DNA of 64,000 bases from assembly GCA_016784145.1 (NCBI GenBank), contig JADHVF010000002.1, positions 9,102 to 73,101 on the forward strand, written 5' to 3'. Under the pieces are notes generated by a model, which was given only the letters and a program-made list of their open reading frames with translations, searched no databases and had not been told where the DNA came from. Positions within the stretch are counted from its first letter, which is position 1, and each line of letters starts with the position of its first letter. Below are positions 9,165 to 62,772 of this stretch, piece by piece. Both the position numbers and the translations under genes were made by a program. The DNA is from Patescibacteria group bacterium. Its GTDB lineage: Bacteria; Patescibacteriota; Patescibacteriia; UBA2591; UBA6264.

Positions 9165-9383
9165 ACTTAGAGGCCTTGCCCCTAAGTAGAGTCACTTAGA
9201 GGCCTTGCCCCTAAGTAGAGTGCTAATCAGTAATCAGTAATTATTTACTTAGAGGCCTTGCCCCTAAGTAGAGTGCTAATCAGTAATCAGTAATTAATAT
9301 CTACTTAGAGGCCTTACCCCTAAGTAGAGTTACTTAGAGGCCTTGCCCCTAAGTAGAGTGCTAATCAGTAATCAGTAATTAAT
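9165..9383. repeat. Array of 5 copies of the 28-nt GC-rich hairpin element ACTTAGAGGCCTTGCCCCTAAGTAGAGT, three followed by a (CAGTAAT)n spacer
   Basis: The direct repeats are read from the sequence. Each copy is an imperfect inverted repeat (TACTTAGAGG / CCCCTAAGTA). It sits between convergent genes and overlaps the stop of the minus-strand CDS. Confidence 0.85.
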
Positions 9384-10602
9384 ATGGGTATATATAGCCA
9401 AGCACTCGCCAGCTGTCAAGTTTGTATTTTCTATGAGTTACTTTCCAGGCGCCCTTAAAGTTCATTTCTGAAAAATAAACATATTTATCATCAAATGACT
9501 CAACATAAGCAACATGTCCATATATTCTGGCTGCCCAGCCAGATTCTTTTAATAAAATAATTGCTCCTTTTTTAGGAGTTGTCCCAATTTTAAATCCCTT
9601 ACTCCTGGCATTCCCCATCCAACTTTTGGCATGTCCAACCCAAGTAGTACAAACTCCAAGTTCAGTTGCCCATTTATAAGCAGCCCATGAAGTGCATTGT
9701 CCTGGATAAAATCGATGGCATTTTCTCTTTGAGCTATAGGCCCAAGTCTTATAGCTTGACGGGGTCTCAACTAGTCGAACATCTTCTTGGGTTGCTCTTG
9801 GAACAATTTTGCGTGGTTTTGGCTTTGGTTTTGGCTTGATGGCATTTGGAATAAGTATTTCGTCATTTATAAATATATCTCCAGAGTCAGCTAAATTATT
9901 AAACTCAATTATGATTTGGGATGATGTTTTATATTTTTTAGCAATTGTGTCTATGGTATCACCATTTTTTACTTTATGTCTTAATCCATTTATAGGCAGA
10001 ATCATTAATGTTTCGCCTGGTTTGATAAATCTAGCTGTATATAGGGTTAGATTATTTTCCCATAAAATTGAATCAACGCTGATGCCAAATTTTTCAGCAA
10101 TGCTTATTATGGTATCGGCTGATTGAACAATATATTTTTCAACTTTAGTTCTAGTTAATGGTTGGGACATATCTAAGTCAACTTCAGTTGAGATTAGTGC
10201 AGAGTTATTAAGAGATAGGATTAACTCAGGTGAATTGTTTTTCTCTCTAATGGCGGCTATTTTAAAGTCGGGTTCTGTTCCTGCTTTCACTGGTAATTTA
10301 ATTTCAGGCAATGTATTTTCAGTAATAATTTTTTGTTCTTTGTCTATAAAAGAAAAAAATAGACTATTGTTAAAAGAATTTTTATAAACTTCATTAACCT
10401 CTGAATAAGAAAACATTGAAAAAATAAAAATAATTCCAAGAATTAATATTTTCTTGGAAAAAATTGTGTTTATATTATGCCTTGTTAATGCTTGATGAAT
10501 ATAAACAAATGTCAAAACAACAGTATGTCCTATTCTTTTTAAGACATTGTCTTGATTAGATAGAAATTTGGTGCTATTATCTACAATGGTTTTTGTTTTC
10601 AT
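9379..10602 (-). CDS. Secreted/membrane-anchored peptidoglycan hydrolase with 2x LysM and a C-terminal CHAP domain
   Basis: It has an N-terminal TM helix. There are two LysM-like segments (DTIISIAEKFGISVDSILWENNL; DTIDTIAKKYKTSSQIIIEFNNL). The C-terminal CHAP region includes CTSWAAYKW...GHVAYVE, supplying the catalytic Cys and His. Confidence 0.75.
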   Translation of the reverse strand: MKTKTIVDNSTKFLSNQDNVLKRIGHTVVLTFVYIHQALTRHNINTIFSKKILILGIIFIFSMFSYSEVNEVYKNSFNNSLFFSFIDKEQKIITENTLPEIKLPVKAGTEPDFKIAAIREKNNSPELILSLNNSALISTEVDLDMSQPLTRTKVEKYIVQSADTIISIAEKFGISVDSILWENNLTLYTARFIKPGETLMILPINGLRHKVKNGDTIDTIAKKYKTSSQIIIEFNNLADSGDIFINDEILIPNAIKPKPKPKPRKIVPRATQEDVRLVETPSSYKTWAYSSKRKCHRFYPGQCTSWAAYKWATELGVCTTWVGHAKSWMGNARSKGFKIGTTPKKGAIILLKESGWAARIYGHVAYVESFDDKYVYFSEMNFKGAWKVTHRKYKLDSWRVLGYIYPY

Positions 10603-10660: not shown

Positions 10661-13120
10661 ATGCAGAGATATAATTTTGAAAAAATAGAGAAAAAATGGC
10701 AAGCGGTTTGGGATAAGTTAAATATTTATAAAGCAGAGGACTTTAATACAGATAAACCCAAACAATATATTTTAGTTGAGTTTCCATATACATCTGGAGA
10801 TGGATTGCATGTTGGGCATGTACGAGGTTATACTGCTCTTGATATTTTAGCAAGAAAAAAACGAATGCAAGGAATTAATGTTTTATATCCAATGGGGTGG
10901 GATGCATTTGGTTTGCCAACCGAGAATTATGCTATTAAGTCAAAAATTCATCCCATGGAAATAACTGCTGCAAATGTAAAATTATTTAAAAGGCAACTAA
11001 AAAGCCTGGGCATGAGTTTTGATTGGTCAAGAGAAATCAATACCACTTCGCCAGCTTATTATAAGTGGACTCAATGGATATTTTCAAAATTGTTTATTAA
11101 TAAATTGGCTTACCAAGATAAAATTCCAATTAATTGGTGTTCAAAATGTAAAATTGGGCTCGCTAATGAAGAGGTGATAGCTGGCAAATGTGAAAGATGT
11201 GGGTCCATCACAGTCAAGAAAGAAAAAAAACAATGGATGCTTAAAATAACAAAATACGCTGACAGATTAATTAAAGATTTAGATGGAGTTAATTATTTAG
11301 ATAAAATAAAATCACAACAAATTAATTGGATAGGAAAAAGTAAAGGCACACAAGCAATATTTAAAATAGATAAACAAAACATAGACATAGAGGTTTTCAC
11401 AACTAGAATAGATACTATTTTTGGGGTCACATCTCTTGTGTTGGCTCCAGAACATAAAATAATTGGAAAACTGAAATCTCAGATTAAAAATTGGGATCAA
11501 GTTGCAAACTATATTAAACAGGCAAGTAAAAAAAGTGACTTAGAACGGACAGACCTTAATAAAACTAAAACAGGAGTTATTTTAAAAGGAGTTTTTGCTA
11601 TTAATCCAGTTAGTCAGAAAAAAGTACCAATTTGGATGGCTGATTATGTTATTTCCTCGTATGGTGGGGGAGCTGTGATGGTCGTCCCGGCTCATGATAA
11701 AAGAGATTATGTCTTTGCTAAAAAGCATAATATGGAAATCATAGAAGTTATTAAGGGGGGGGATGTTTTTAAACAAGCCTATACGGATTATGGAAATTTA
11801 ATAAATTCAGGAGAGTTTGATAAGTTGACATCTGTTCAAGCAATTAAGCAAATCACCAAATGGTTGGCAAAAAATAAAAAAGGAGGACCAATTATTAACT
11901 ACAAGCTAAGAGATTGGGTTTTTTCAAGACAACATTATTGGGGCGAGCCAATTCCAATTATCCATTGTGAAAAATGTAAAGCAGTTTTGGTTGATGAAAG
12001 AGATTTGCCAGTTATTTTGCCAAAAGTAAAAGAATACGAACCAACTGAAACAGGAGAATCTCCTTTGGCAAAAATTAAAGAATGGGTAAATGTTAAATGC
12101 CCTAAATGCAATGGGCCGGGCAAAAGAGAAACAGATACCATGCCAAATTGGGCTGGTTCAAGTTGGTATTTTTTAAGATATATTGACCCTAATAATGACA
12201 GTCAGTTAGCTGACTTTAAAAAGTTAAAATATTGGTTACCAGTTGATATTTATAATGGTGGCATGGAGCATACAACTTTACATTTGCTTTATTCTCGGTT
12301 TTGGCACAAATTTTTGTATGACATAGGCGTTGTTCCTTGCCAAGAGCCATATCAAGCCAGAATTTCACACGGAATGGTGTTAGGAGAAGGGGGAGTAAAA
12401 ATGAGTAAAAGTTTAGGCAATGTAATTAATCCAGACAATATTATTAAAAATCATGGCGCTGACGCATTAAGAGTATATGAAATGTTCATGGGGCCATTTG
12501 ACCAAGCAATTGCATGGGATTCAAAAACAATTGATGGCATTGATAGATTTTTAATGAAGATTATAAAGCTGACTCAATCAAATTTAGAAGATAGCCAAAT
12601 AAACTCAGATGAGCAAGTGATTAAAAATTTAGAGCAAATAAAACATCAAACAATTAAAAAAGTGAGTCAAGATATTGAGGACCTTAAGTTTAATACAGCT
12701 ATTGCTTGTTTAATGGAATATGTTAATAATCTTTTGGAATACAATAAACAAGACAATGTTTGTGGCTCAAAAGACATGATTGATTCTATTAAAATACTAA
12801 TATTATTAATGTCTGTTTTTGCTCCGCATTTGTCAGAAGATTTATGGCATAAAATAAATTCTGATATTTCAGACATAGATAGCATTTTTCAAGAACAATG
12901 GCCGAAACATGATTTAGAATTAGTAAAATCAAAACAAATAGATTTGATTATTCAGATTAATGGCAAGTTCAGGCATATTATAAAAGTAGATGCTGGCTTA
13001 TCAAAGCAAAAAGCAGGAAAATTAGCAAAGCAAGAAGCAAAAATTCAAAAATATTTAAAAAACAAGCAGGCAAGCAAAATAATATTTGTTCCAGATAAAA
13101 TAATTAACTTTGTTTTGTAA
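10661..13120 (+). CDS. leuS: Leucyl-tRNA synthetase
   Basis: The HIGH-region reads HVGHVRGY and the KMSKS motif is present (VKMSKSLGN). Other LeuS-specific blocks: PYTSGDGLHVGH, WDAFGLP. 819 aa. Confidence 0.95.
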   Translation: MQRYNFEKIEKKWQAVWDKLNIYKAEDFNTDKPKQYILVEFPYTSGDGLHVGHVRGYTALDILARKKRMQGINVLYPMGWDAFGLPTENYAIKSKIHPMEITAANVKLFKRQLKSLGMSFDWSREINTTSPAYYKWTQWIFSKLFINKLAYQDKIPINWCSKCKIGLANEEVIAGKCERCGSITVKKEKKQWMLKITKYADRLIKDLDGVNYLDKIKSQQINWIGKSKGTQAIFKIDKQNIDIEVFTTRIDTIFGVTSLVLAPEHKIIGKLKSQIKNWDQVANYIKQASKKSDLERTDLNKTKTGVILKGVFAINPVSQKKVPIWMADYVISSYGGGAVMVVPAHDKRDYVFAKKHNMEIIEVIKGGDVFKQAYTDYGNLINSGEFDKLTSVQAIKQITKWLAKNKKGGPIINYKLRDWVFSRQHYWGEPIPIIHCEKCKAVLVDERDLPVILPKVKEYEPTETGESPLAKIKEWVNVKCPKCNGPGKRETDTMPNWAGSSWYFLRYIDPNNDSQLADFKKLKYWLPVDIYNGGMEHTTLHLLYSRFWHKFLYDIGVVPCQEPYQARISHGMVLGEGGVKMSKSLGNVINPDNIIKNHGADALRVYEMFMGPFDQAIAWDSKTIDGIDRFLMKIIKLTQSNLEDSQINSDEQVIKNLEQIKHQTIKKVSQDIEDLKFNTAIACLMEYVNNLLEYNKQDNVCGSKDMIDSIKILILLMSVFAPHLSEDLWHKINSDISDIDSIFQEQWPKHDLELVKSKQIDLIIQINGKFRHIIKVDAGLSKQKAGKLAKQEAKIQKYLKNKQASKIIFVPDKIINFVL

Positions 13121-24536: not shown

Positions 24537-27500
24537 ATGTTAAATAGATTAAAAAAAATTAATTTTTCTCTTAAAAAATTAATACCAATAAACAGCATTG
24601 GTGTGAAAAGATTTTTATTATTATTTGTTTTTGTTGGTATTGCTATTTTTGTTCCTAAAATAGTATTTGCTTTTAGTATTATAGATAGCATAATTGCTCC
24701 TCCCTTAATGGCTTTGATTAATTTTTTGGGAAGATTAACTTCGTTTTTTATTTGGCTCTTAGTTCAAGTGGCTCAGTATAATGATTTTATAAATTCACCA
24801 GCCGTATCAAAAGGGTGGATTTTAATGAGAGACATATTTAATATGTTTTTTGTTATTATCTTGTTAGTAATTGCTTTTGCGACGGTTCTTAAAATAGAAA
24901 CATATTCATACAAGCGATTAATGCCAGTATTTATTGTTTCAGCTGTTTTGATTAATTTTTCCAAGTTGATTTGCGGAGTGATAATTGATATTTCTCAGGT
25001 TTTAATGCTTACATTTATATCTGCTATTCAGTCAGCTGCTACAGCTGATTTTGTTGAAATTTTTGGGTTGACTAAAATGTTGGAATTAAGAGATAACATA
25101 GAATCAGGGGTGGTTATTTCGGGAGGAGAAATGTTTGGGGCTTTGCTTTTAGGACTTGTTATGGTTTTGGTTGCTCTTGGAGTTATAATGACAATGACAC
25201 TTTTGTTAGTAGCCAGGATTGTTATGATTTGGTTTTATGTCCTGCTTTCGCCAATGGCTTTTATGGCAACTATTTTACCGGGGACAAAAAGCTATGCTAG
25301 TCAATGGTGGACTGATTTTATAAAACAAGTAATCATTGGCCCTGTTTTGGCTTTTTTTCTATGGATATCTTTTTCAGTTGTCTCGACAGGGGGGTCTTCT
25401 GGAATGATTGATTCATCTAGCGGGAATTCAGCTACCATAGGCGTAACCGGAGAGCCGAGTTTTATATTTAACTTTTTAATTGGCATTGCGATGTTGATCG
25501 GCTCTTTAATGATGGCTCAAAAAATGGGAGTAGCTGGTGGAAAAATGGTTGGGGGAGCAGTTAGCAAAATGAAAGGCATGGCCATTGGCAAAGCAAAAGG
25601 AGTAGCCAAGAGAGCAGCCAAGAGAGTAGGAGCCCCTTTAAAGAAAGTTGGCAAGGGCTTGGCAGGAGCAGCAGTTAAAGCACCTCTTAGGGGATTAAAG
25701 GCTGGAGTAAAATTTGGGGGCAAAAAATTACAAAAAACAGGAAAAGTCGGAGAATGGGTTGGTAAGGGAATTGAAAAGACAGCAACTCCGATTGAATCAA
25801 TTAGACAACTAAAAGGTAGTGCAGTTCAAGGATTGCAAAAAAGAAAACAAAGTCGTTTAGAAAGACTTAGAAAAGGGAAAGGAACGATAATGGATAAAGC
25901 AGCCCAGGCATTAAGTGAAGAATATGATAAATCAGGAGGGAGAGACACAACAATTAACCAGGAAATTAGGAGGGATAAACTTGAAAAAAGACAAAAACAA
26001 GCTCAATCAAAACATGATGATGATGTAATTGTAGGAGCAGAAAACGACGAAGCATATGCTCTTGTGGCAGCAGAAAGAGGATTATTAAAAACAACCAAAG
26101 TTGAAAAATTACCGACTAAAGACAATAAAAGATTGGAAGAATTAAAACAAGGTGATGCCACAGACACTTTAACCACAGAGGAGCAAGAAGAGTTTGAAGA
26201 ATTAACAACCAAGAATGAGGATTTAAAGAAAAAAGCTAAAACAACAACCAAGAACAATGAACGAGTTGAGCGCACGGTGGCTAATGCTAGAAACAAATTT
26301 GCATCAGATTCTATTATAGGGAAGTCCTTTGATGACCATTTAAAAAAGAAAGGTGATGCTAATTTAGCTTATAATACATTTTATAAAGATAATCCAGGGC
26401 AGTTAACTAAAGATATTAAATCAGGAGATTTTGGGGTAGCCCAATTAATGAAATTAGATAAAGATACAACAAAGGACCTTGGTTCAAGTGATGTGGGGCA
26501 GAATATTTTATCTGAAATAAAAACAGAGGATTTTAATAAATTTGCTAAATCTACGGACATAAAAGTTCAGGATAAATTTGAAGCACTTTTTGGAGACATA
26601 AAGCCGGAAAAAATTAAAGAAAAAGATAAACAAAAACTGATTGATGCTGGTAGGGCTGATTTAGCTTTTGTGGATGACCCAGAAACAGAAGAACAAAAAA
26701 GTAATAACAAAAACATGGTTAAAAAATTGGAAATGGAAGAGAATAGAGATGTTTTACTTAAACAGTCAGACATGGCTTTAAAGAATGATGTGGTGGCTGA
26801 GTTGGTCGTAAAGACAGCAAATCTAGAAGATATTCAAAAAATGTCACCGAAAAGAAAGGAAAATCTTTTGGAAGAAAAAATGCCTGCTATAATGAAGAAT
26901 TATCAAAAAAAGGAAAGCGATCAAGGATTAGAAGACCCTGAAAAAGAAGATTATAAGAAGATTCAAACAACTTATATTAAAGCCAAGAAAGGAAAAGATA
27001 TTAGCAAGGTCTTTGAAGACAAGGATGGCAAGTTTGATGAAAGCAAGTGTGCTAATCTTTCTAAATGGATAAAAAATGGTACAATTAAATCAGGTGATTT
27101 GGGAGATTTAGATATTGATAGGGAAAATATTAATGAAAAGCAAAAAGATGAAGTATTGAGTCAAATATCTCAAGGAATGACAGCTAGCGATGTTATGAAA
27201 TTATATGGTAAAAATCAAGGATTGGCACAAAAATTAACCAATAAAATTCAAGCACAAGCTTCAACAGGAGATAAAGAAGCACTAGAAAAGATAGAAGTTC
27301 TCTCCAACTCAGAATTTTTTCAAAGACAAATATCTACAACAACTAAACAAAAAACAAAAGAAACAAAAATACAGGGCAAGAAAGTAGATAAATCAAGTGT
27401 CCGAAAGATTGAAACAATAACTACTCAAGAAATTGAAGAAAGAAAAGAAATGATAACCAAAAAATATAATAACCTTGAAGAACCAGTAGATGCTATAATG

Positions 27501-28127
27501 ATAGTAGAAGACCATACTAAACAAGGTGGCGAATTAGCGAAAACAATTAGTTCTGCTTCTTTAGAATCATTTAAAAATTTACAAGCATCAAAGAATGCAG
27601 GGAAAGAAATGATTGCTAAAATGGACAAAAATGAATTAAATGAGTTTGCTCAGGAGCTAATCAAGCATAAAGGCGGACAAGAAAAACTGGCAAAGATTTT
27701 TAATTTAAGAGATATGTTCCCTGTCGGCCAAGACTTGTCTGAAAAAGGAAAGATGACAGTTAATAACAAAGAATATGATTTATCTAATTCAAGGGAAAGA
27801 GAAGAGGTTAATCAACTCAATGCTCAAAAAGCAGTTGATGTTATAAAACAAGCACCAACCATTGCTGTTAATTTAGCAGGAGTAGAAGGCGCAAAAGGAT
27901 TAACAGATTTGCAAGGAGTGAGCAAAGAAATAGCAGAAGCGATAATACAAGCCATTGCCAACCAAGCAAACAAAGGGGATGACCAAGCTCAACAACTCAT
28001 TCCCAACCTTAAAAATACTGCATGGATAAAAGAAATTTTAGAAAAACAAAAGAAAGAAGCAGGACCACTAGAAGAAGGGCAATCAGAGACAGAAGGGACA
28101 ACAGAAGGGACAACAGAAACAGAATAA
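24537..28127 (+). CDS. VirB6/TrbL-like polytopic membrane protein with an ~850-aa K/E/D-rich low-complexity tail
   Basis: The N-terminal ~330 aa contain about 6-7 hydrophobic helices with TrbL/VirB6-like organisation. Next comes a Gly/Lys-rich linker (GKAKGVAKRAAKRVGAPLKK). The tail is long, charged and probably coiled/disordered. It lies in the same operon as the VirB4 ATPase. Confidence 0.5.
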   Translation: MLNRLKKINFSLKKLIPINSIGVKRFLLLFVFVGIAIFVPKIVFAFSIIDSIIAPPLMALINFLGRLTSFFIWLLVQVAQYNDFINSPAVSKGWILMRDIFNMFFVIILLVIAFATVLKIETYSYKRLMPVFIVSAVLINFSKLICGVIIDISQVLMLTFISAIQSAATADFVEIFGLTKMLELRDNIESGVVISGGEMFGALLLGLVMVLVALGVIMTMTLLLVARIVMIWFYVLLSPMAFMATILPGTKSYASQWWTDFIKQVIIGPVLAFFLWISFSVVSTGGSSGMIDSSSGNSATIGVTGEPSFIFNFLIGIAMLIGSLMMAQKMGVAGGKMVGGAVSKMKGMAIGKAKGVAKRAAKRVGAPLKKVGKGLAGAAVKAPLRGLKAGVKFGGKKLQKTGKVGEWVGKGIEKTATPIESIRQLKGSAVQGLQKRKQSRLERLRKGKGTIMDKAAQALSEEYDKSGGRDTTINQEIRRDKLEKRQKQAQSKHDDDVIVGAENDEAYALVAAERGLLKTTKVEKLPTKDNKRLEELKQGDATDTLTTEEQEEFEELTTKNEDLKKKAKTTTKNNERVERTVANARNKFASDSIIGKSFDDHLKKKGDANLAYNTFYKDNPGQLTKDIKSGDFGVAQLMKLDKDTTKDLGSSDVGQNILSEIKTEDFNKFAKSTDIKVQDKFEALFGDIKPEKIKEKDKQKLIDAGRADLAFVDDPETEEQKSNNKNMVKKLEMEENRDVLLKQSDMALKNDVVAELVVKTANLEDIQKMSPKRKENLLEEKMPAIMKNYQKKESDQGLEDPEKEDYKKIQTTYIKAKKGKDISKVFEDKDGKFDESKCANLSKWIKNGTIKSGDLGDLDIDRENINEKQKDEVLSQISQGMTASDVMKLYGKNQGLAQKLTNKIQAQASTGDKEALEKIEVLSNSEFFQRQISTTTKQKTKETKIQGKKVDKSSVRKIETITTQEIEERKEMITKKYNNLEEPVDAIMIVEDHTKQGGELAKTISSASLESFKNLQASKNAGKEMIAKMDKNELNEFAQELIKHKGGQEKLAKIFNLRDMFPVGQDLSEKGKMTVNNKEYDLSNSREREEVNQLNAQKAVDVIKQAPTIAVNLAGVEGAKGLTDLQGVSKEIAEAIIQAIANQANKGDDQAQQLIPNLKNTAWIKEILEKQKKEAGPLEEGQSETEGTTEGTTETE

Positions 28128-29466: not shown

Positions 29467-29895
29467 ATGCAATTTTTAGTTCCACAATTTATTGATGTTG
29501 AACCAAAAATCATTGGGCCAATTTCGCCTCGTCAGTTCGTTGTTTTCATTGTTACTTTATTATTATGTGTGTTAGCATATAAGTTAGCTGATTTTGCTTT
29601 ATTCACAATTGAAGCAATTATTTTTGTGGCAGTAGGGGGGTCATTTATGTTTCTTAAGGTTAATGGCCAACCATTGCATTATTTTTTACTTAATATTGGG
29701 AATAGTTTCAAAAAGCCAAACTTAAGGGTGTGGAAAAAACAAACCAAGATGCCAGTTGAAATAAAAGTAAAAGAAAAGAAAAAAGACAAAGGACCAATTG
29801 TTGTCAGAAAGTCACTTCCTTCAACTCGGCTTTCACAAATTTCATTAATGGTTGATACAGGAGGCAAATACAATGAAGAGGATTTTGAAGAATAA
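29467..29895 (+). CDS. PrgI/VirB3-like small membrane protein (type IV secretion component)
   Basis: 142 aa. MQFLVPQFIDVEPKIIGPISPRQFVVF… is followed by two hydrophobic helices, typical of the PrgI family. It sits immediately upstream of the VirB4-family ATPase, as VirB3 does relative to VirB4. Confidence 0.5.
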   Translation: MQFLVPQFIDVEPKIIGPISPRQFVVFIVTLLLCVLAYKLADFALFTIEAIIFVAVGGSFMFLKVNGQPLHYFLLNIGNSFKKPNLRVWKKQTKMPVEIKVKEKKKDKGPIVVRKSLPSTRLSQISLMVDTGGKYNEEDFEE

Positions 29896-29908: not shown

Positions 29909-30574
29909 ATGGCAACTAAAAGCAATGTATCTTCTACTCAAAAATATTTAGACATTTCTGAAATTAGAAATGATTGTGTGATTTTGAAAAATGGATCATT
30001 ATGTTCTGTTATTTTGTCATCTTCAATTAATTTTGGGCTTAAGTCATCTGACGAGCAAAAAGCAGTGATTCAAAATTATATATCATTTTTAAACACAATA
30101 GATTTCCCAATGCAAATAATTATCCAATCAAGACCTTTTAATATCAAACCATATCTAGCTGAATTGGAAAGTCTTAGAAAAAAACACACAAATGAATTGT
30201 TAAAAATTCAAATGGCAGATTATGCTAGTTTTGTGAAAGAATTGGTTGTTTTAGGAGAGATAATGAGTAGAAAGTTTTATATTGTTCTTTTGTATAATCC
30301 AGCTGGTGATAAAAAAATTGGATTTTTTGCTAGGATTTCAGAGCTTTTTAGTGCAGCTAGAACAGTTAAAATGAATAGAATAAAAATTGAAAAATATAAA
30401 GAAAAGCTTTTCAGAAGAGTTGATATTGTTACCTCGGCTCTTTCTTCTATGGGAGTAAGTGGAGTGCCGCTTGATACACAAAGTTTAATAGAACTTTTTT
30501 ATAACTCATATAATCCAGCTGAATCTGAAATGCAAAAAATTACAGAAGTCAAAAAATTAAGATTAGAAGATTAA
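29909..30574 (+). CDS. Hypothetical protein; candidate detached N-terminal domain of the VirB4/TraC ATPase
   Basis: 221 aa. …YLDISEIRNDCVILKNGSLCSVI… resembles the start of VirB4 N-terminal domains. It ends 13 nt before the ATPase ORF. Confidence 0.45.
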   Translation: MATKSNVSSTQKYLDISEIRNDCVILKNGSLCSVILSSSINFGLKSSDEQKAVIQNYISFLNTIDFPMQIIIQSRPFNIKPYLAELESLRKKHTNELLKIQMADYASFVKELVVLGEIMSRKFYIVLLYNPAGDKKIGFFARISELFSAARTVKMNRIKIEKYKEKLFRRVDIVTSALSSMGVSGVPLDTQSLIELFYNSYNPAESEMQKITEVKKLRLED

Positions 30575-30587
30575 AATAAATTTTATT

Positions 30588-32504
30588 ATGGTTTTTGACC
30601 CATCAATTATTAAAACAAAAGAAGAATTAGCAGAGCAACCAAAACAGTTGTCTAAAAAAGAACAGAAGCAAGTTGATATTAAAAAAGAGATAGAATTAGA
30701 TGATGTCATAAAGACAGAGCAAGCATATCGCAAAGGACTTGTCTCTGTTCGTGATTTGATTGCTCCTTCTGCTTTGAGAGCAACTCCAGCCTATCTACAG
30801 TTGGGAAACAAATATCTCAGAACACTTTTTGTAGTTGCCTTCCCAAGATATATTACAGTTGGTTGGTTTTCTCCTTTAATTGGCTTTGATTCTTCTTTGG
30901 ATGTATCAATGTTTTTTTATCCGGTTGAAACAAAAGTGATTTTAAAACAATTACAAAAAAAAGTTGGTAATATAGAAGCAGAGCTTGGAGCAGAATACGA
31001 GAAAGGTATGCCAAGAGACCCTTTAAAGGAAACAGCTTTGAGAGATATTGAGAATTTAAGAAATCAATTAACTACTGGTACAGAGCATTTTTTTCAATTT
31101 TCTTTATATGTAACTATTTATGCTGACACGGAAAAAGAGTTGGATGAGACAACAGAAAAAGTAGAGAACATTTTTGCATCAAAACTAGTTTATACTAGAA
31201 GAGCTTTTTATCAAGCAGAACAAGGATTTGATTCTACCTTGCCTTTAGCAAATGACAAAATAATGGTTTCAATAAATATTAATACCTCTCCTTGCGCTTC
31301 TAGTTTCCCTTTTATTTCAGCTGATTTAACGTCAGACAATGGCATTCTCTACGGAATTAATAGACATAACAATAGTTTGATTCTTTTTGATAGATTTTCA
31401 ATGCCTAATGCTAATTTTATGGTTTTTGCTACCTCTGGCTCGGGTAAAAGTTATTTTGCTAAATTAGAAGTTTTGCGGTCATTAATGATGGGCACGGATG
31501 TTATTATTATTGACCCTGAAAAAGAGTACAAGCATTTATCTGACGCTGTAGGGGGAACGTTTATTAACATCTCGCTTGCTTCTGAAGCCAAGATTAATCC
31601 ATTTGATTTGCCCAGGTCAAGTTCAAAAGATGTAAAAACAAGCGATCTAATTAGAAGTGGAGTTATTTCAGTAAAAGGATTATTAAAGCTAATGATTGGA
31701 CAGCCAATAGGAAAGAAAGATAATGCTTTTACGCCAAAAGAGGACTCCTTGCTTGATAGTGCACTTTTAGAAACTTATGCTAAAAAAGACATTATACCAG
31801 GATGTGATTTAACAAAAGTTCAAATGCCAACCTTAAGCGATTTTCAGCAAATTTTAGAAGGAATGGAGGGAGTAGATGATTTAGTTGAAAGATTAAAAAA
31901 ATATACAGCCGGAACATTTTCAGGATTTTTAAATCGTCCTACTAATGTTGAAATGGATAACCAGTTTATAGCTTTTTCAGTTAGAGATCTTGAGGACGAA
32001 TTAAGACCAATGGCTATTTATAGTATTGTGAATTATATTTGGAATACTGTGCGAGCAAAATTAAAGAAAAGAATTTTATTGGTTGACGAGGCTTGGTGGT
32101 TAATGCAAAATGAAGAGTCTGCAAAATTTATATTTGCTCTTGTTAAACGTTGCCGAAAATATTATATGGGAGTAACAACAATTACACAGGATGTAAATGA
32201 CTTTCTTAACTCTCCTTATGGCAGGGCAATTGTCACTAACTCAGCCATGCAATTATTATTAAAACAGTCGCCAGCTTCGGTTGACAGGGTATCAAAGATA
32301 TTTATGCTGACAGAAGGAGAAAAATTTTTATTATTAGAATGTGGGCTGGGTGAAGGCATATTCTTTGCTGGACCCAAACACGCGGCCATAAAAGTAGTTG
32401 CTTCTTATTCAGAAGACCAATTAATAACATCAGACCCCAGTCAGTTATTAGAAATTGAAGAATCTAAAAAAGAGTTTGCTAAAGAATCTAAAAAAGAAGA
32501 ATAA
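30588..32504 (+). CDS. VirB4/TraC/TrbE-family type IV secretion ATPase
   Basis: Walker A is FATSGSGKSYFAKLE. Walker B is RILLVDEAWWLM. A downstream TTITQ motif is present. 638 aa; if the preceding ORF is included, the size matches VirB4. Confidence 0.8.
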   Translation: MVFDPSIIKTKEELAEQPKQLSKKEQKQVDIKKEIELDDVIKTEQAYRKGLVSVRDLIAPSALRATPAYLQLGNKYLRTLFVVAFPRYITVGWFSPLIGFDSSLDVSMFFYPVETKVILKQLQKKVGNIEAELGAEYEKGMPRDPLKETALRDIENLRNQLTTGTEHFFQFSLYVTIYADTEKELDETTEKVENIFASKLVYTRRAFYQAEQGFDSTLPLANDKIMVSININTSPCASSFPFISADLTSDNGILYGINRHNNSLILFDRFSMPNANFMVFATSGSGKSYFAKLEVLRSLMMGTDVIIIDPEKEYKHLSDAVGGTFINISLASEAKINPFDLPRSSSKDVKTSDLIRSGVISVKGLLKLMIGQPIGKKDNAFTPKEDSLLDSALLETYAKKDIIPGCDLTKVQMPTLSDFQQILEGMEGVDDLVERLKKYTAGTFSGFLNRPTNVEMDNQFIAFSVRDLEDELRPMAIYSIVNYIWNTVRAKLKKRILLVDEAWWLMQNEESAKFIFALVKRCRKYYMGVTTITQDVNDFLNSPYGRAIVTNSAMQLLLKQSPASVDRVSKIFMLTEGEKFLLLECGLGEGIFFAGPKHAAIKVVASYSEDQLITSDPSQLLEIEESKKEFAKESKKEE

Positions 32505-32512
32505 AATTATTT

Positions 32513-33052
32513 ATGAAAAAAAATATTATTGTAATTATTTTAATAATCATTTTAATTATAGTTGGAATTATTTTTATGTTTGCCAGCCAAAATGAACAAG
32601 ATATTCCTACTGATGACAAAATATTAAAGCAACAAGATATTGAGAAGCAAGAGCAAGAAAAAGCAAAGGCAGCTCAAATTAAAATTATTAAAACAGATTT
32701 AAAAAATCAAGCCAGAGCATTTGTTCAATACATGGGTACTTATTCAAAAGAAAATGCTTATCAAAACAGAGAAGAGTTATTAAATCAAATGACTGATAGT
32801 TTTATAAAAAAATCATTAGAACAAATTGAACAAAACATAAATCAACCAGATTTTGCTTCTTTGTTGACTAGTGTTTTGTCAGTTGAAGCAAGAAGACATA
32901 ATAATGAAGTGGCTGTTTATTCTGTTAATGTTAAACAAACAAGAGTTTTTGCTAGTGTGGTTGAGGATGAGATTGAGTATAAAACAGGTGAAATTCTTTG
33001 GCTAAAACAAGCTGACAAATGGAAAGTTAATAGTATTGATTTTGATTTATAG
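32513..33052 (+). CDS. Bitopic membrane protein (N-terminal TM plus ~150-aa extracytoplasmic domain); possible VirB8-like component
   Basis: The hydrophobic N-terminus is IIVIILIIILIIVGIIFMF. It is followed by a soluble domain with mixed alpha/beta character. Its position is within the T4SS-like operon. Confidence 0.35.
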   Translation: MKKNIIVIILIIILIIVGIIFMFASQNEQDIPTDDKILKQQDIEKQEQEKAKAAQIKIIKTDLKNQARAFVQYMGTYSKENAYQNREELLNQMTDSFIKKSLEQIEQNINQPDFASLLTSVLSVEARRHNNEVAVYSVNVKQTRVFASVVEDEIEYKTGEILWLKQADKWKVNSIDFDL

Positions 33053-33068
33053 CTTTTAATCATTTTTT

Positions 33069-33509
33069 ATGGGAGAGCAAACAATACAGCAAAGAGAATT
33101 GGAGAGAAAAAGAGAACTTTTATTACAACAGCAAAGACAGCGAATAATTCAATCAAAAAAAAAGAAAGATTCTCAGAATACTAAACAAACAGAAGAAAAA
33201 ATCAAAAAATTAAGAAGAGTTTATAGGATGTCAAATGCAAGTTCAGCAGCGAGTGTATTTGGAATTATTATCACCTTTTTAATAATGAATGCTCAGTTAA
33301 TTTTTGGAAATATACTTGGATTCAAGAAAATTCCTAAATTAACTTTACCAGAAATAGCAATTCTTATTTTAATAGATTTTTTAGTACTTATAATTACTTT
33401 GTTTATTGTTTTGCTTTTAGTCCTTGCAGCCATGCCATTAATTGGACCAGTGGCAGCAGTAAATATATTTGGAACAGAAATTGTAAGTTTTATTCAATCA
33501 ATGTTTTGA
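33069..33509 (+). CDS. Small membrane protein (charged N-terminus, 2-3 TM helices)
   Basis: 146 aa. The N-terminus is Q/R/K-rich and the C-terminal half is hydrophobic. It is operonic with the T4SS-like genes. Confidence 0.4.
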   Translation: MGEQTIQQRELERKRELLLQQQRQRIIQSKKKKDSQNTKQTEEKIKKLRRVYRMSNASSAASVFGIIITFLIMNAQLIFGNILGFKKIPKLTLPEIAILILIDFLVLIITLFIVLLLVLAAMPLIGPVAAVNIFGTEIVSFIQSMF

Positions 33510-33516
33510 TTTATAA

Positions 33517-34920
33517 ATGAAAATAAAAAATTTAAATAAATTATTTAGTGTTTTAATAGTAGTGTTTTTGCTGACTTGTTTTTTAAGTATGCCGGTTTTT
33601 GCTCAAGAAAATGGAAACGAATACGAATCTCCAGCTTTTTATCCACAAGTTCAAATCCCTAATCCTAATTCAGATTTTATTCCAGGACAGGCAACTATAA
33701 TCAGTGGTAGCACTTTTGCAACATATATTATTGCAATTTACAATTGGGGATTAAGAGCTGTTTTAACCTTGGCTATTATTGTGATTATTGTTTCAGGATT
33801 TCAATGGATGGTTTCTACTGGCAATGCTAGTAAAATCGGTCAGGCAAAAGAAAGAATTATTTCTGCTTTGATTGGAGTAATGATTGCCCTTGGGTCATTT
33901 TTTCTGCTTAATTTTATTAATCCTTCTTTAACAAGATTTAGAGATCTAAATGTTGCACCAGTAGTGGATTTAGCAGAGATTAGTAATAAAAAATGTGGAG
34001 AAAATGGTATTTGTATTTATGGAGAGATTAGAGAAAATGAGGATAAAAGCATAGGGCAGTGCGAGTGCAAAACAGAAATGAGGGTGCAGTATAAATACAA
34101 AGATGAAGATGGGGATGAAGATGAAGAGGAGGAAAATTTTCAAGCTAAAAAATATTATGATTGTGGAAAAATGTATTATGAACCCAGAACACATATTGGG
34201 GCTGATTGCGGAGAGAATAACCCAAAACAAACTTGTATGTTAAAGGTAGGGTTTGAAACAGGTGGCAATAATAATTATTATCCGTATGGAAACAATGAAT
34301 GGGCTATTAATTTTTTCACTTCTCCTGAAGATTTTGCTATGTGGCCAGATGATACCAGGGATTGTATAGATGCAAGTCAACCACCCCCACCTGATTGCCC
34401 TGATGAAACAGCAATATATGAGATAGATGATTTCCGTTGTTTTAATATTACATCAAGCCCAGATCCGTATTGCGAAGATCATGTAATTTCTTTAACAAGT
34501 CAAATACAAGATCTTGTGTTGAAAGAATCAGAAATTACTAAAATAGAAATATATTTAGCTGTTGATGACGCATATGAGCAAGGTTGCCCCATGAATAATA
34601 TGGACGAAAAAGACTGGAAAACACTAAAGAATAGCAATCATTGGACTGATTATTTAGGAAATAATCATAATGATGTTGGCACAGAATTTAGTTGCATAAA
34701 TCCAGGAGACGACAGTGGTAATGATGCCGTAATAAGAGTAAGAGCTTGTTTTGGAATTGATGATGATTATTGCAAGAATACATCTAATCAGGATTATAAC
34801 CCAAATCCTAATGATATTTTTAAAGATTTTAAAATTATAATAGCAGATGACAGTAGTGGGGGAGCAACTTCTTACTATGGTCAAATAAAAGTTTATACAA
34901 ATCGTGTTTGTTCACAATAA
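33517..34920 (+). CDS. VirB2/TrbC-like pilin domain fused to a ~330-aa Cys-rich C-terminal extension
   Basis: It begins with a signal peptide (LIVVFLLTCFLSMPVFA). Two hydrophobic helices separated by a short loop follow (…IIAIYNWGLRAVLTLAIIVIIVSGFQWMVSTGNASKIGQAKERIISALIGVMIALGSFFLLNFINP), the classic T4SS pilin topology. The C-terminal half is rich in Cys, Asp and Asn. Confidence 0.5.
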   Translation: MKIKNLNKLFSVLIVVFLLTCFLSMPVFAQENGNEYESPAFYPQVQIPNPNSDFIPGQATIISGSTFATYIIAIYNWGLRAVLTLAIIVIIVSGFQWMVSTGNASKIGQAKERIISALIGVMIALGSFFLLNFINPSLTRFRDLNVAPVVDLAEISNKKCGENGICIYGEIRENEDKSIGQCECKTEMRVQYKYKDEDGDEDEEEENFQAKKYYDCGKMYYEPRTHIGADCGENNPKQTCMLKVGFETGGNNNYYPYGNNEWAINFFTSPEDFAMWPDDTRDCIDASQPPPPDCPDETAIYEIDDFRCFNITSSPDPYCEDHVISLTSQIQDLVLKESEITKIEIYLAVDDAYEQGCPMNNMDEKDWKTLKNSNHWTDYLGNNHNDVGTEFSCINPGDDSGNDAVIRVRACFGIDDDYCKNTSNQDYNPNPNDIFKDFKIIIADDSSGGATSYYGQIKVYTNRVCSQ

Positions 34921-34926
34921 ATAAAT

Positions 34927-36219
34927 ATGTCAGAAAAAACCAAGAAAATATTATTAGTAATTTTATTCATTTTAGTCGTAATTGGTATGGCTTGGCTTTT
35001 ATATTCTGTGTTTTTTAAAAAACCAGTTGTATTGGTTGCCCCAGATATTGTTGAAGAACTACCTGAACAAGTAAGGTTGCCTGTTACTCAAGATGATTGG
35101 GAAGCAATGACAGTAGAACAAAGAGTTACTAATGGTTTGCCAAAATTTGAGTGGCTAGATAAAGAGATTTCTAAAATTCCAGCTATTCCTGTTACTAGGA
35201 AGGTTGCTCCTAAAATTGATGAAATAGCTAAAGGGGGGAAAACATGGGTTTCCCCGGTTTCAATTGATAAAGTAAAATGGCCCACTTTAGCAAAGGATGG
35301 GTTAAATAGTATTTATTATAATCCTGAGACAGGTCAATTTTTTGAAGTTGATATTTATGGGAACAAAACATTAATGACAGACCAGGTCTTTTATAATGTT
35401 GATAATGTTAATTGGGCCCCCACTAAAGAAAGGGCTATTATTGAATATCCAGACGGTTTTAAGGTAATGTATGATTTTAAAAAGAAAAAACAATATACTT
35501 TGCCAAAAAATTGGGAAGATTTTTCATGGGATATTGGGGCTGACAAAATTGCTTTCAAATCAATTAGTAAATATGCAGAAAATACTTGGTTAGCTATTGC
35601 CAGGCCAGATGGAAGCAAGGCAAAGCCAATTGAACACATGGGAGAAAACGCAGATAAAGTTACTGTTTCTTGGTCTCCTAATAATCAAGTAGTGGCTTTT
35701 TCATCTACTGGTGACCCAAGAGGAATGTGGGAACAAGAAATGTTATTAATTGGTCAGCATGGCGAAAATTTTAAATCATTAGTTATTGACGGCAGGAGAT
35801 TTGAACCAAAATGGGCGCCAAATGGAAGCAAAATTGTTTATAGTGTTTACAGTTCAGAGTTTGATTACAAGCCAAGGTTATATGTTGTTGATGCCCAAGG
35901 AGATGATATAGGTAGAAATAAAATAAGCACAGGACTAGAAACATGGGCTCATAAATGCACTTTTAATTCTAATGGGGCTGAACTTTATTGTGCTGTGCCA
36001 AAAACATTGCCAGATGGAGCTGGTATGATTGAAGAATTAGGAGAAGGATCTAGAGATAATTTTTACAAAATAAATGTTTCTACCGGGGAGGTTTCTTTTT
36101 TAGCAGAAGGGGCTATGGGGGGCTATGATGTCAAGGATATTTATGTGTCTAATGATGATAAATATCTTTATTTTGTTGACGAAAATAGTAGTAGGTTAAG
36201 ATATATTAAGTTAAAATAA
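34927..36219 (+). CDS. Membrane-anchored TolB-like (PD40) beta-propeller protein
   Basis: An N-terminal TM helix is followed by repeated W-SPDG-like blades (VSWSPNNQVVAFSS; PKWAPNGSKIVYSV; IEYPDGFKVMYD). Confidence 0.6.
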   Translation: MSEKTKKILLVILFILVVIGMAWLLYSVFFKKPVVLVAPDIVEELPEQVRLPVTQDDWEAMTVEQRVTNGLPKFEWLDKEISKIPAIPVTRKVAPKIDEIAKGGKTWVSPVSIDKVKWPTLAKDGLNSIYYNPETGQFFEVDIYGNKTLMTDQVFYNVDNVNWAPTKERAIIEYPDGFKVMYDFKKKKQYTLPKNWEDFSWDIGADKIAFKSISKYAENTWLAIARPDGSKAKPIEHMGENADKVTVSWSPNNQVVAFSSTGDPRGMWEQEMLLIGQHGENFKSLVIDGRRFEPKWAPNGSKIVYSVYSSEFDYKPRLYVVDAQGDDIGRNKISTGLETWAHKCTFNSNGAELYCAVPKTLPDGAGMIEELGEGSRDNFYKINVSTGEVSFLAEGAMGGYDVKDIYVSNDDKYLYFVDENSSRLRYIKLK

Positions 36220-58104: not shown

Positions 58105-58779
58105 ATGAATAGACTTGTTAAAGTAAAAAAAAATCTTCAGATATTAGAGTTTATTAGGCAGAGCGCGAAAAGCATGAGTGCAATTGGATACACTGAACAT
58201 GGATTAAGACATGCAGAGCTTGTATCTAAGAGAGCTGGTTGGTTGGCAAAACAAGTTGGGTTAGACAAAAATAAACAGGAGTTAGCTTCTATTGTTGGAT
58301 TTTGTCATGATGCAGGTAATTTTATGGGAAGAACTCAACATCATTATTGGGGAGCTGTTTTATTTCATCAAGTTTTTTCTAATAATGATGATTGCATTTT
58401 TTCTGCCAAAGAAATTACATCTATTGTTCAAGCAGTTGTAAATCATGATAAATATACAATGAAATTAACCAATGGAATATCAGCCATAGTTGTTTTGGCA
58501 GATAAGTCAGACACTAGTCGTTCAAGAGTAGAAGCAAAATCAATCAAAGAAATAACCAAAGATATTCATAATAGGGTAAATTATGCGGTTACAGATTCAA
58601 AATTAATTGTTGATAAGCAAAAAAATATAATTTCATTATCTTTAAAAATAGACACAAAATTTGTTTCAATCATGGAATATTTTGAAATTTTTACAGATAG
58701 AATGTCATATTGTAGAAAAGCAGCCGAATGTCTTGGGTATAAATTTGGATTGATTATTAATGATTTTAAATTATCATGA
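58105..58779 (+). CDS. HD-domain phosphohydrolase
   Basis: H…HD signature: HGLRHAELV … GFCHDAGN … VNHDKY. Confidence 0.65.
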   Translation: MNRLVKVKKNLQILEFIRQSAKSMSAIGYTEHGLRHAELVSKRAGWLAKQVGLDKNKQELASIVGFCHDAGNFMGRTQHHYWGAVLFHQVFSNNDDCIFSAKEITSIVQAVVNHDKYTMKLTNGISAIVVLADKSDTSRSRVEAKSIKEITKDIHNRVNYAVTDSKLIVDKQKNIISLSLKIDTKFVSIMEYFEIFTDRMSYCRKAAECLGYKFGLIINDFKLS

Positions 58780-59084
58780 ATAACAGGACAATAAAGATAA
58801 ACGAACTGATTAAAAGAGAATTATCAGGTATTATTTTGAAGCAGATAAATATTCCACTAGGTTCCTTTGTTACAATAACAAAAGTTGAGACAGCTGCGGA
58901 TTTAGTAAAGACAAAAATATGGATAAGCATTTTCCCGGATGAATATAATGAAGAAATTTTAAAGATTTTTAATAAAAACGCTGGCAAACTTCAAGATATT
59001 TTAAATAAGCGTTTATCAATGAAATGGGTTCCAAGGATTAAATTTTTTGTTGATTTAACAAATATAAATATTGATAAGAAATAA
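58776..59084 (+). CDS. rbfA: Ribosome-binding factor A
   Basis: 102 aa. …RTIKINELIKRELSGIIL… (KH-like fold signature of RbfA). The start overlaps the upstream stop (ATGA). Confidence 0.75.
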   Translation: MNNRTIKINELIKRELSGIILKQINIPLGSFVTITKVETAADLVKTKIWISIFPDEYNEEILKIFNKNAGKLQDILNKRLSMKWVPRIKFFVDLTNINIDKK

Positions 59085-61752: not shown

Positions 61753-62772
61753 ATGTCTAATGAAAAACAAACAACTTTAATTAAGATAGATGTTTGGTCT
61801 ATCCTCAAAATAGCCATAATTCTTCTAATAGCAGTGTTTTTATATTTTATAAGAGATATTCTTTTTATTATTTTTATTGCTGGCCTTCTGGCAACCATAA
61901 TTTCTCCAATGATTGCTTTTTTTGAACGAAAAAAAATCCCTCGTTTTTTAGGAACATTATTTGTTTATATTGGCGTTTTTATGATTTTAGCTTTGGTGGG
62001 AGTTACGGTTGTTCCAACCGTAATAAGCCAGGGCAAAGTTTTATCAGAGCAACTGCCAGAACTTCTAAGTTCAATCTTGAGTAAAATTCAACCAGAATCA
62101 CAAGCACAATTTGCAGACATAGTAGATAAGTGGTTTGCTAAGTCAAGCCTTGATGCAATGTCTATTTTTTCAGTGTTAGGAACAGTGGCTGGGCAAGTAT
62201 TGTCGTTTGTAATGATTTTTGTATTAGCGTTTTATTTGTCAATTAGAAAAAAAGGAGTTGAAACAGCTGCTAATTTGTTAATTCCAGATAAATATCAAAA
62301 ATTCTTTAAAAATTTTATTAATTCAGTCCAAAAAGAAATTGGAGCATGGGCAAGAGGGCTGGCAATGCTTTGCCTTTTTGTTGGAATAATGGTCTATGTT
62401 GGCCTGACTATATTGGGAGTAAAATATGCACTAACATTGGCTGTTATAGCTGCACTGGTGGAGATTATACCATATATTGGTCCTTGGATTGGCTTATTAA
62501 TAGCAATAATAATTACATTGGCACAATCTCCGGCCTTGGTTTTATTTGTTGTTGGTCTTTATTTAATTATTCAGCAAATTGAAAATATTTTAATTTCTCC
62601 ATATATAATGCATAAAGCGGTTGGATTAGACCCGCTAATTATAATTTTAGCATTAATGGTTGGTGGAAAGTTGGCTGGTCCAATTGGTATGATTGTTGCC
62701 GTACCTTGTGCTACAATTTTCTCAATTTTATTGAGGTATTACATAGAACATAAGCAAAAATTAATTGAGTAA
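61753..62772 (+). CDS. AI-2E (PerM/YhhT) family transporter
   Basis: 339 aa with 7-8 TM helices. The conserved …PYIGPWIG… block is typical of AI-2E permeases. Confidence 0.7.
   Translation: MSNEKQTTLIKIDVWSILKIAIILLIAVFLYFIRDILFIIFIAGLLATIISPMIAFFERKKIPRFLGTLFVYIGVFMILALVGVTVVPTVISQGKVLSEQLPELLSSILSKIQPESQAQFADIVDKWFAKSSLDAMSIFSVLGTVAGQVLSFVMIFVLAFYLSIRKKGVETAANLLIPDKYQKFFKNFINSVQKEIGAWARGLAMLCLFVGIMVYVGLTILGVKYALTLAVIAALVEIIPYIGPWIGLLIAIIITLAQSPALVLFVVGLYLIIQQIENILISPYIMHKAVGLDPLIIILALMVGGKLAGPIGMIVAVPCATIFSILLRYYIEHKQKLIE

Follow-up and report, generated by a model that had tools for sequence, protein, structure and literature searches.

A single-copy pilin-domain protein with a cysteine-rich ectodomain in a type IV secretion operon of a Patescibacteria bacterium

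Why should a protein that begins like a pilin of a type IV secretion system (T4SS) continue into a long cysteine-rich region? This question is raised by a gene of 467 amino acids (aa) within a 64,000-nucleotide (nt) stretch of DNA from an uncultured, ultra-small Patescibacteria group bacterium (assembly GCA_016784145.1, contig JADHVF010000002.1, positions 9,102 to 73,101 of the forward strand), the whole of which we refer to as the window. The first-pass annotation had placed such fusions outside canonical T4SS descriptions. We found that extensions of at least 100 aa follow the pilin domain in 135 of the 153 relatives used for counting C-terminal extensions (median length, 194 aa; median Cys content, 7.2%). 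As judged from these sequences, fusion of a pilin hairpin to an ectodomain is the usual architecture in a large subfamily and not a one-off, and it is visible to anyone browsing the Pfam family PF18895. Moreover, the gene is a conserved, single-copy part of a chromosomal Patescibacteria T4SS operon and is linked to VirB4 in related loci. The reading that we prefer, in which we place about as much trust as doubt, is that a conserved T4SS-coupled hairpin displays an exchangeable ectodomain for contact with the envelope of a host bacterium.

The gene starts 7 nt past the stop codon of the gene upstream, and in NCBI an identical protein from a Patescibacteria group bacterium (ISS06_01355) is annotated as hypothetical. 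The same protein occurs on 11 contigs, and six of these occurrences, each from a different sample or run, all have identical neighbors. Because the identical protein recurs with the same neighbors across samples, we conclude that the open reading frame (ORF) is a real gene. Its presence in independent assemblies, together with the 13,928 relatives at E ≤ 1e-3 (1,763 at E ≤ 1e-10) obtained when 1.84 billion representative proteins were searched exhaustively with phmmer, excludes a chance ORF.

The pilin domain and its family

To describe the N-terminal part of the protein, we combined hydropathy with structure modeling. Hydropathy placed three hydrophobic segments at aa 3-31, 70-102, and 112-136, and AlphaFold2, supplied with a 150-sequence alignment, modeled the second and third as hairpin helices at aa 66-99 and 104-134 (predicted local distance difference test [pLDDT] >90). 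Thus, the signal peptide and the two hydrophobic helices around a short loop, as originally described, were borne out by both approaches, and the topology check named beforehand, a signal peptide ending in VFA↓QE followed by a two-helix hairpin, gave a result consistent with a pilin. The strings quoted in that description are likewise all present: GFQWMVSTGNASKIGQAKERIISALIGVMIAL occupies aa 94-125, CGENGICIYGE aa 160-170, and CECKTEM aa 182-188. Ala29, at the end of the signal peptide, reaches at least 90% conservation across the aligned family, and the motif of the segment that follows (Table 1), in which P43 is invariant or nearly so, is a marker of the long-pilin subfamily.

The Pfam profile T4SS_pilin (PF18895) matched aa 66-133 over profile positions 4 to 70 (67/71; E = 4e-4). 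Taken alone, the window protein scored 20.8 bits, which is under the gathering score of 26.6 bits; this sub-threshold score is settled by the family context, as the profile matched 137 of the 140 closest relatives with a best E value of 1e-51, and we have therefore assigned the N-terminal domain to PF18895. On sequence grounds, it is a member of the "VirB2-like" pilins known from Patescibacteria T4SSs. Consistently, the short pilins encoded in arrays elsewhere aligned motif for motif with the window domain, with G94, W97, G102, and G120 invariant, and the window stretch IIVSGFQWMVSTGNASKIGQAKERIISALIG corresponds to IIVSGFQWMTAGGNATTIETAKKRIINAxIG in these array pilins.

The first-pass annotation had gone further and assigned a VirB2/TrbC pilin build. 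Support for the build came from the PF18895 coverage, the hairpin model, and the proximity of virB4; no significant match to VirB2 was obtained. More specifically, a match to the TrbC profile PF04956 (E = 1e-3) was confined to aa 1-39 and carries no weight because it covered the signal peptide alone. Alignment with Agrobacterium VirB2 by hhalign returned probabilities of 5% (one sequence) and 11% (120-sequence profile) and covered only the end of helix 1, where GISWMFGRAS in Agrobacterium VirB2 is locally similar to GFQWMVSTGNAS in the window protein. Given these two probabilities, we do not claim VirB2 homology. No chain was matched when the pilin-domain profile was searched against PDB sequences, and a Foldseek search of the full-length model, including its low-confidence C-terminus, against PDB yielded nothing at E ≤ 0.001 and no pilin among the top 50, the matches being generic helical hairpins, a class of short structures that Foldseek discriminates poorly.

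Two further identities were considered and rejected. The protein is not a type IV pilus pilin, as it has no prepilin-peptidase motif (G↓F/M-x-x-x-E) and possesses a Sec leader (VFA↓QE) plus two more hydrophobic helices, and it is not a sortase-anchored surface protein, as it ends in ...TNRVCSQ without an LPXTG motif.

The ectodomain and its replacement between operons

We next turn to the region beyond the hairpin. Of the 17 Cys in the protein, one lies in the signal peptide and 16 lie in aa 151-467, a stretch of 317 aa that also holds 37 Asp, 28 Asn, and 16 Pro. The corresponding Cys content is 5.0%, compared with a window mean of 1.45% over stop-to-stop ORFs of at least 150 aa. The C-terminal part is thus rich in Cys, and in Asp, Asn, and Pro, as first described, the original figure of about 20 Cys being a slight overcount. 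Extensions of at least 60 aa past the pilin domain are present in 145 of the relatives, among which 126 have an even number of Cys (an excess of ~9 standard deviations over a 50:50 null expectation) and 129 have a Cys content of at least 4%. Even parity is as expected if all Cys are paired, and the ectodomain is extracytoplasmic and most probably fully disulfide-bonded.

The region had been presented as one domain. Sequence comparison divides it into at least two modules, one of which is shuffled among relatives. For the first (module A, aa 156-289), jackhmmer found no significant relative among the 153 proteins, and similarity to P0042, P0016, and P0013 was marginal only. The second (module B, aa 290-467) recurs in 21 of the 153 relatives, mostly straight after the hairpin, module A displacing the copy in the window protein downstream. 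Structure prediction, which had been proposed for the C-terminal part, succeeded for module B, as a 20-sequence alignment gave an eight-strand beta-sandwich with a pLDDT of 84 and a predicted template modeling score (pTM) of 0.84; it did not succeed for module A. We obtained no PDB sequence match by profile and no Pfam match for module B. Its weak structural matches all belong to the jelly-roll class, comprising viral capsids, the receptor-binding domain of botulinum toxin, the Kex2 P-domain, and CBM11, as well as phage baseplate and receptor-binding proteins. The predicted fold class fits a binding module, with no specific structural relative found.

The same gene order surrounds seven relatives, namely, those in loci L020, L021, L023, and L024 and in the partial loci L001, L022, and L025. 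In the shared slot, VirB3-TrsD-VirB4-g179-g146-[pilin gene]-TolB-like, the orthologues of the window proteins are 75-81% identical for VirB4, 62-68% for the TrsD-like protein, 63-65% for the TolB-like protein, and 51-57% for PrgI. The pilin N-domain is 48-50% identical, and the C-terminal region shows either no significant similarity (L001, L021, and L023) or similarity in module B only, at 23-30% identity (L024 and L025). As the hairpin is conserved and the C-terminus is unalignable or alignable in module B only, the ectodomain has been replaced between otherwise orthologous operons. The pilin gene is single-copy per operon, and in the partial locus L001 it is in tandem. Diversity at this position is also apparent in the wider set, in which BLAST sorts the C-termini of the 145 relatives into 78 groups, 57 of which have a single member.

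A minority of relatives carry an NlpC/P60, Amidase_2, Peptidase_M15_4, SLT, or 3D peptidoglycan hydrolase domain, always C-terminal to the hairpin. Because peptidoglycan hydrolases occupy the same position as the ectodomain, the C-terminal end lies outside the membrane. The hydrolase-bearing relatives could represent VirB1-like functions tethered by the pilin domain. In P0006, P0123, P0099, P0110, and P0146, the hairpin is followed by NlpC/P60, Amidase_2, Peptidase_M15_4, or 3D; a Pfam scan found no hydrolase signature in the window protein.

Interchangeable C-terminal modules, some of them enzymes, behind a conserved N-terminal module would also be expected if the hairpin served as a signal for export or insertion by the T4SS and the variable C-termini were effectors delivered on or into the host envelope, following the logic of polymorphic toxins, and protein export by Patescibacteria T4SSs has been speculated upon in print (PMC10633639, PMC11665869). 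We regard this reading as improbable. The pilin gene is followed not by a small immunity-like gene but by a conserved 430-aa propeller gene; each operon holds a single copy of the gene rather than a cassette array; most C-termini lack an enzymatic signature; and the Sec signal peptide already carries the protein across the membrane of the producer.

Possible roles at the cell surface

A different arrangement was seen in eleven pilin loci recovered from species-representative genomes, mostly labeled Komeilibacteria or Patescibacteria, with three from metagenome-assembled genomes labeled Gammaproteobacteria. Nine of the eleven carry 3-9 pilin-domain genes in a row, and the window VirB4 has no match within 10 kb of them. 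In the longest arrays there are 6-9 pilins, all short (108-172 aa) and almost devoid of Cys. In five arrays (L003, L005, L006, L007, and L010), a single longer pilin of 190-297 aa with 12-22 Cys comes first and 7-8 short pilins follow, and the leading pilin in three of these five carries a small conserved C-terminal Cys-rich module. This pattern suggests a division into major and minor pilins.

These arrays bear on whether the window protein could itself be the major polymerizing pilin, bearing a 35-kDa Cys-rich domain on the outer face of every subunit. It is the sole pilin-domain gene product of its operon, in the window as well as in L020-L024, and a linker of ~16 aa follows the hairpin. 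In conjugative pili of solved structure, the two ends of the pilin point outward, so that a C-terminal fusion is topologically possible. However, on F-pilus geometry we estimate that each subunit offers ~800 square angstroms of surface, against a cross-section of ~1600 square angstroms for a 35-kDa globule. Furthermore, other Patescibacteria possess separate arrays of 6-9 short Cys-free pilins, five of them with one Cys-rich longer leader. Some VirB2/TrbC pilins are cyclized head to tail, which a C-terminal domain would bar. It is therefore improbable that the window protein is the unit repeated along a fully decorated pilus. The earlier picture of a folded, disulfide-rich module on a pilus subunit therefore survives in part: the module is extracytoplasmic and most probably disulfide-rich, and the assumption of a polymerizing subunit is set aside in view of the steric strain and the separate short-pilin arrays.

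Some single chains contain 2-6 tandem T4SS_pilin domains, an arrangement that is possible only if both hairpin ends share one side of the membrane. Such chains represent pilin arrays fused into one polypeptide, which any model of a pilus would have to accommodate. In P0095, P0138, P0046, P0057, P0028, and P0137, we counted 3-6 tandem domains, with six in the 555 aa of P0095 (Pfam E = 1e-51). Chains such as P0095 and P0138 resemble membrane-embedded assemblies more than extractable subunits, and hydrolases fused to the same hairpin need the cell's own wall, not a distant filament. Both observations would be in keeping with a hairpin that does no more than hold the protein in the membrane by two helices, never being extracted or polymerized and perhaps forming a permanent component of the T4SS membrane complex, and with an ectodomain that is an ordinary surface protein. 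We find this explanation rather doubtful, given that the conservation of the hairpin across operons, with its FxPQVxIP, GFxWM, GNA, and NFINPSL motifs, exceeds what a generic anchor would need and that its linkage to virB4 is strict in the related loci.

From the architecture, the family membership, the operon slot, the even-Cys signature, and the replacement of the C-terminus, all of which were observed, we infer the following course of events for an exchangeable ectodomain displayed by a T4SS-coupled hairpin. The Sec signal peptide would be removed, leaving the PF18895 hairpin spanning the cytoplasmic membrane, its two ends on the outer side and its basic loop on the inner side, and the 317-aa disulfide-bonded ectodomain, comprising the orphan module A and the jelly-roll-class module B, would be exposed on the cell surface. 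As a first option, the hairpin would couple the protein to the T4SS as a membrane-embedded partner; alternatively, once extracted by the action of VirB4, it might join a short pilus or stalk, as a rare subunit or in a terminal or basal position. The exchangeable ectodomain might then bind a structure of the host-bacterium envelope and act as a determinant of contact or specificity, by analogy with VirB5, R64 PilV, and CofB/TcpB.

Several points weigh against this proposal. The label "VirB2/TrbC pilin" rests on the family name and the architecture, homology of the hairpin to bona fide VirB2 having been detected by neither profile nor fold searches. There is no confident structure model for module A, and the Foldseek matches of module B are weak (best PDB match, E = 4e-3 and template modeling [TM] score ≤0.34; best match in the viral database BFVD, E = 8e-5 and TM score ≤0.42). 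No second pilin gene was found in the 64-kb window by phmmer and hidden Markov model searches of ORFs down to 40 aa, and the window holds no short pilin gene able to serve as a major subunit. Pfam scans of 48 window ORFs of at least 100 aa (leaving out 58105-58779, 58776-59084, 61753-62772, and 62794-63798) revealed no Dsb or VKOR gene; an MdbA-like thiol-disulfide oxidoreductase and VKOR are reportedly enriched in genomes of the candidate phyla radiation (CPR) (10.1101/335083). Lastly, a T4SS pilus has so far been seen in no Patescibacterium, and the only CPR filaments solved so far are the unrelated Pam pili (10.64898/2026.03.03.709456).

T4SS pilin genes are essential for the epibiotic growth of Southlakia epibionticum, a Saccharibacterium (Wang et al. 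2023, PMC10633639), and the function of the Patescibacteria T4SS has been described as completely unknown (PMC10633639, PMC11665869). The pilin-ectodomain gene belongs invariably to one common type of operon, and its product combines a conserved, machine-linked hairpin with the fastest-changing extracellular domain of the operon. This makes the protein a concrete candidate for the part of the T4SS that touches the host, in a machine essential in the one species tested. More tentatively, the PF18895 hairpin might be a general T4SS-coupled carrier with which Patescibacteria present interchangeable domains (mostly disulfide-rich binding modules, with cell-wall hydrolases in some cases) at the point of host contact, a possibility that we hold to be less likely than not. 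Were it true, host range could be read throughout the radiation from the hypervariable C-terminus encoded by this one gene of the operon, and the carried module would set which hosts an epibiont attaches to or feeds on. Our data also call for caution in annotation, as counts of "VirB2-like pilins" mix short array pilins with long ectodomain proteins, which probably have different jobs. We expect these results to be of moderate interest to T4SS and CPR specialists.

The operon, its surroundings, and known systems

The features of the pilin gene and its neighbors are compiled in Table 1. The genes run in the order 1196-aa protein, 428-aa protein, PrgI/VirB3, TrsD/TraC-like protein, VirB4, 179-aa protein, 146-aa protein, pilin-domain protein (the eighth), and TolB/PD40-like protein. 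From PrgI to the TolB-like gene, all genes lie on the same strand with gaps of 6-16 nt and without terminator-like sites between them, the sole plus-strand match (35234) being located within the TolB-like gene. The window has a G+C content of 26-37% and is chromosomal, encoding LeuRS, KsgA, RecG, NDK, EF-G, S7, S12, SmpB, IleRS, TGT, and ProRS. We detected no relaxase or VirD4 coupling-protein domain among the 48 scanned ORFs, in line with published accounts of these systems.

Table 1. Positions, in window coordinates, of the pilin-domain gene, the parts of its product, and neighboring genes
Feature	Position	Strand	Basis or remark
Pilin-domain gene; 467-aa protein with Cys-rich ectodomain	33517..34920 (including stop)	+	ATG start
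Sec-type signal peptide, aa 1-29 (MKIKNLNK...SMPVFA↓QE)	33517..33603	+	Hydropathy, conservation, modeled helix 6-23
Conserved extracytoplasmic N-segment, aa 30-65	33604..33711	+	Motif F-x-P-Q-V-x-I-P; pLDDT ~90
Pilin hairpin, aa 66-139: helix 1, basic loop GNASKIGQAKER, helix 2, NFINPSL cap	33712..33933	+	PF18895 match, model
Linker, aa 140-155, TRFRDLNVAPVVDLAE	33934..33981	+	Low model confidence
Module A, aa 156-289; 8 Cys, acidic run DEDGDEDEEEE	33982..34383	+	Orphan
Module B, aa 290-467; 8 Cys, predicted eight-strand jelly-roll-class beta-sandwich	34384..34917	+	Model, recurrence
3247-aa secreted giant protein; 143 Cys (4.4%), CBM_4_9 domain, N-terminal hydrophobic segment	14710..24453	+	Heads the same-strand run
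1196-aa polytopic protein, candidate extended VirB6	24537..28127	+	Topology only
PrgI/VirB3-like membrane protein	29467..29895	+	26.7 bits versus cut-off of 27; orthologues in related loci
TrsD/TraC-like protein, resembling N-terminal part of VirB4	29909..30574	+	
VirB4-type ATPase, CD1110 family	30588..32504	+	350 bits; same operon, upstream of pilin gene with 179-aa and 146-aa genes between
Two small membrane proteins (179 aa, bitopic; 146 aa, 2-3 hydrophobic segments)	32513..33509	+	Conserved between virB4 and pilin gene
430-aa membrane-anchored TolB/PD40-like beta-propeller	34927..36219	+	Next after pilin gene

The 1196-aa protein, for which no Pfam match was found, has at least six hydrophobic segments in its first ~330 aa and a large hydrophilic remainder, and orthologues are present in L023 and L024. 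The 3247-aa protein could be a giant disulfide-rich adhesin; a previous survey reported no adhesins near Patescibacteria T4SSs (PMC12102498). Several side observations concern the neighbors. The VirB4 orthologues in L023 (5324-9256) and L024 (4920-8804) measure ~1300 aa and contain an intein with a LAGLIDADG endonuclease, and the window VirB4 (638 aa) contains no intein. Between the pilin gene and the TolB-like gene, L023 carries pairs of HEPN/nucleotidyltransferase genes, which are toxin-antitoxin-like (11545-12980), and L001 carries a single nucleotidyltransferase gene (2766-3092). The TolB-like protein itself, encoded after the pilin gene in every case, is unexpected in a cell thought to have no outer membrane. 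A LysM-LysM-CHAP cell-wall hydrolase is encoded on the opposite strand at 9379-10602 (-), ~4 kb upstream of the gene run, and possibly provides a VirB1-like activity for the T4SS.

Regarding what has been described before, VirB2-like pilins were reported to be widespread near virB4 in Patescibacteria and were found in 1,948 assemblies, commonly as arrays of 2-11 genes (Quinonero-Coronel et al. 2025, PMC12102498), and that survey treated VirB2 explicitly as a small protein. In the literature on Patescibacteria T4SSs, PF18895, and Cys-rich CPR pilins, we found no description of the ectodomain-bearing subfamily and its fixed operon slot. The N-domain and the operon are already known, and the ectodomain-bearing subfamily in a fixed slot is apparently undescribed. 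The described pilins share with the window protein the N-domain family, with a signal peptide and a hairpin bearing GFxWM...GNA...AK motifs, and a location near virB4 in a chromosomal MPF-FATA-like cluster without a relaxase or coupling protein. As for that cluster (PMC12102498), the window has VirB4, PrgI/VirB3, TrsD, and a VirB6 candidate by topology only. In contrast to the described pilins, which are ~110-150 aa long, Cys-free, and often encoded in arrays of 2-11, the window protein is single-copy and 467 aa long, with a subfamily-specific N-segment and a 317-aa, probably disulfide-rich ectodomain.

Agrobacterium VirB2, RP4 TrbC, and F TraA (PF04956 and relatives) resemble the window protein in having a signal peptide, a helical hairpin, a basic loop, and linkage to VirB4. 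Unlike these pilins, the window protein has a leader of ordinary length (29 aa), not a long one, a large C-terminal domain, and no possibility of head-to-tail cyclization, and no significant sequence or fold-search match connects it with them. The VirB1-type cell-wall hydrolases of Gram-positive T4SSs, such as PrgK, TcpG, and CwlT, find a counterpart in those relatives with NlpC/P60, amidase, M15, SLT, or 3D at the C-terminus, whereas the window protein bears no such signature. VirB5/CagL, the R64 thin-pilus PilV shufflon adhesin, and the type IVb minor pilins CofB/TcpB are minor or tip adhesins. These differ from the window protein in fold and assembly, VirB5 being a soluble helical protein and the window protein being without a prepilin-peptidase motif. 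The likeness to them is one of functional analogy only, in that a variable or beta-rich C-terminal part responsible for target specificity follows a conserved part serving pilus incorporation.

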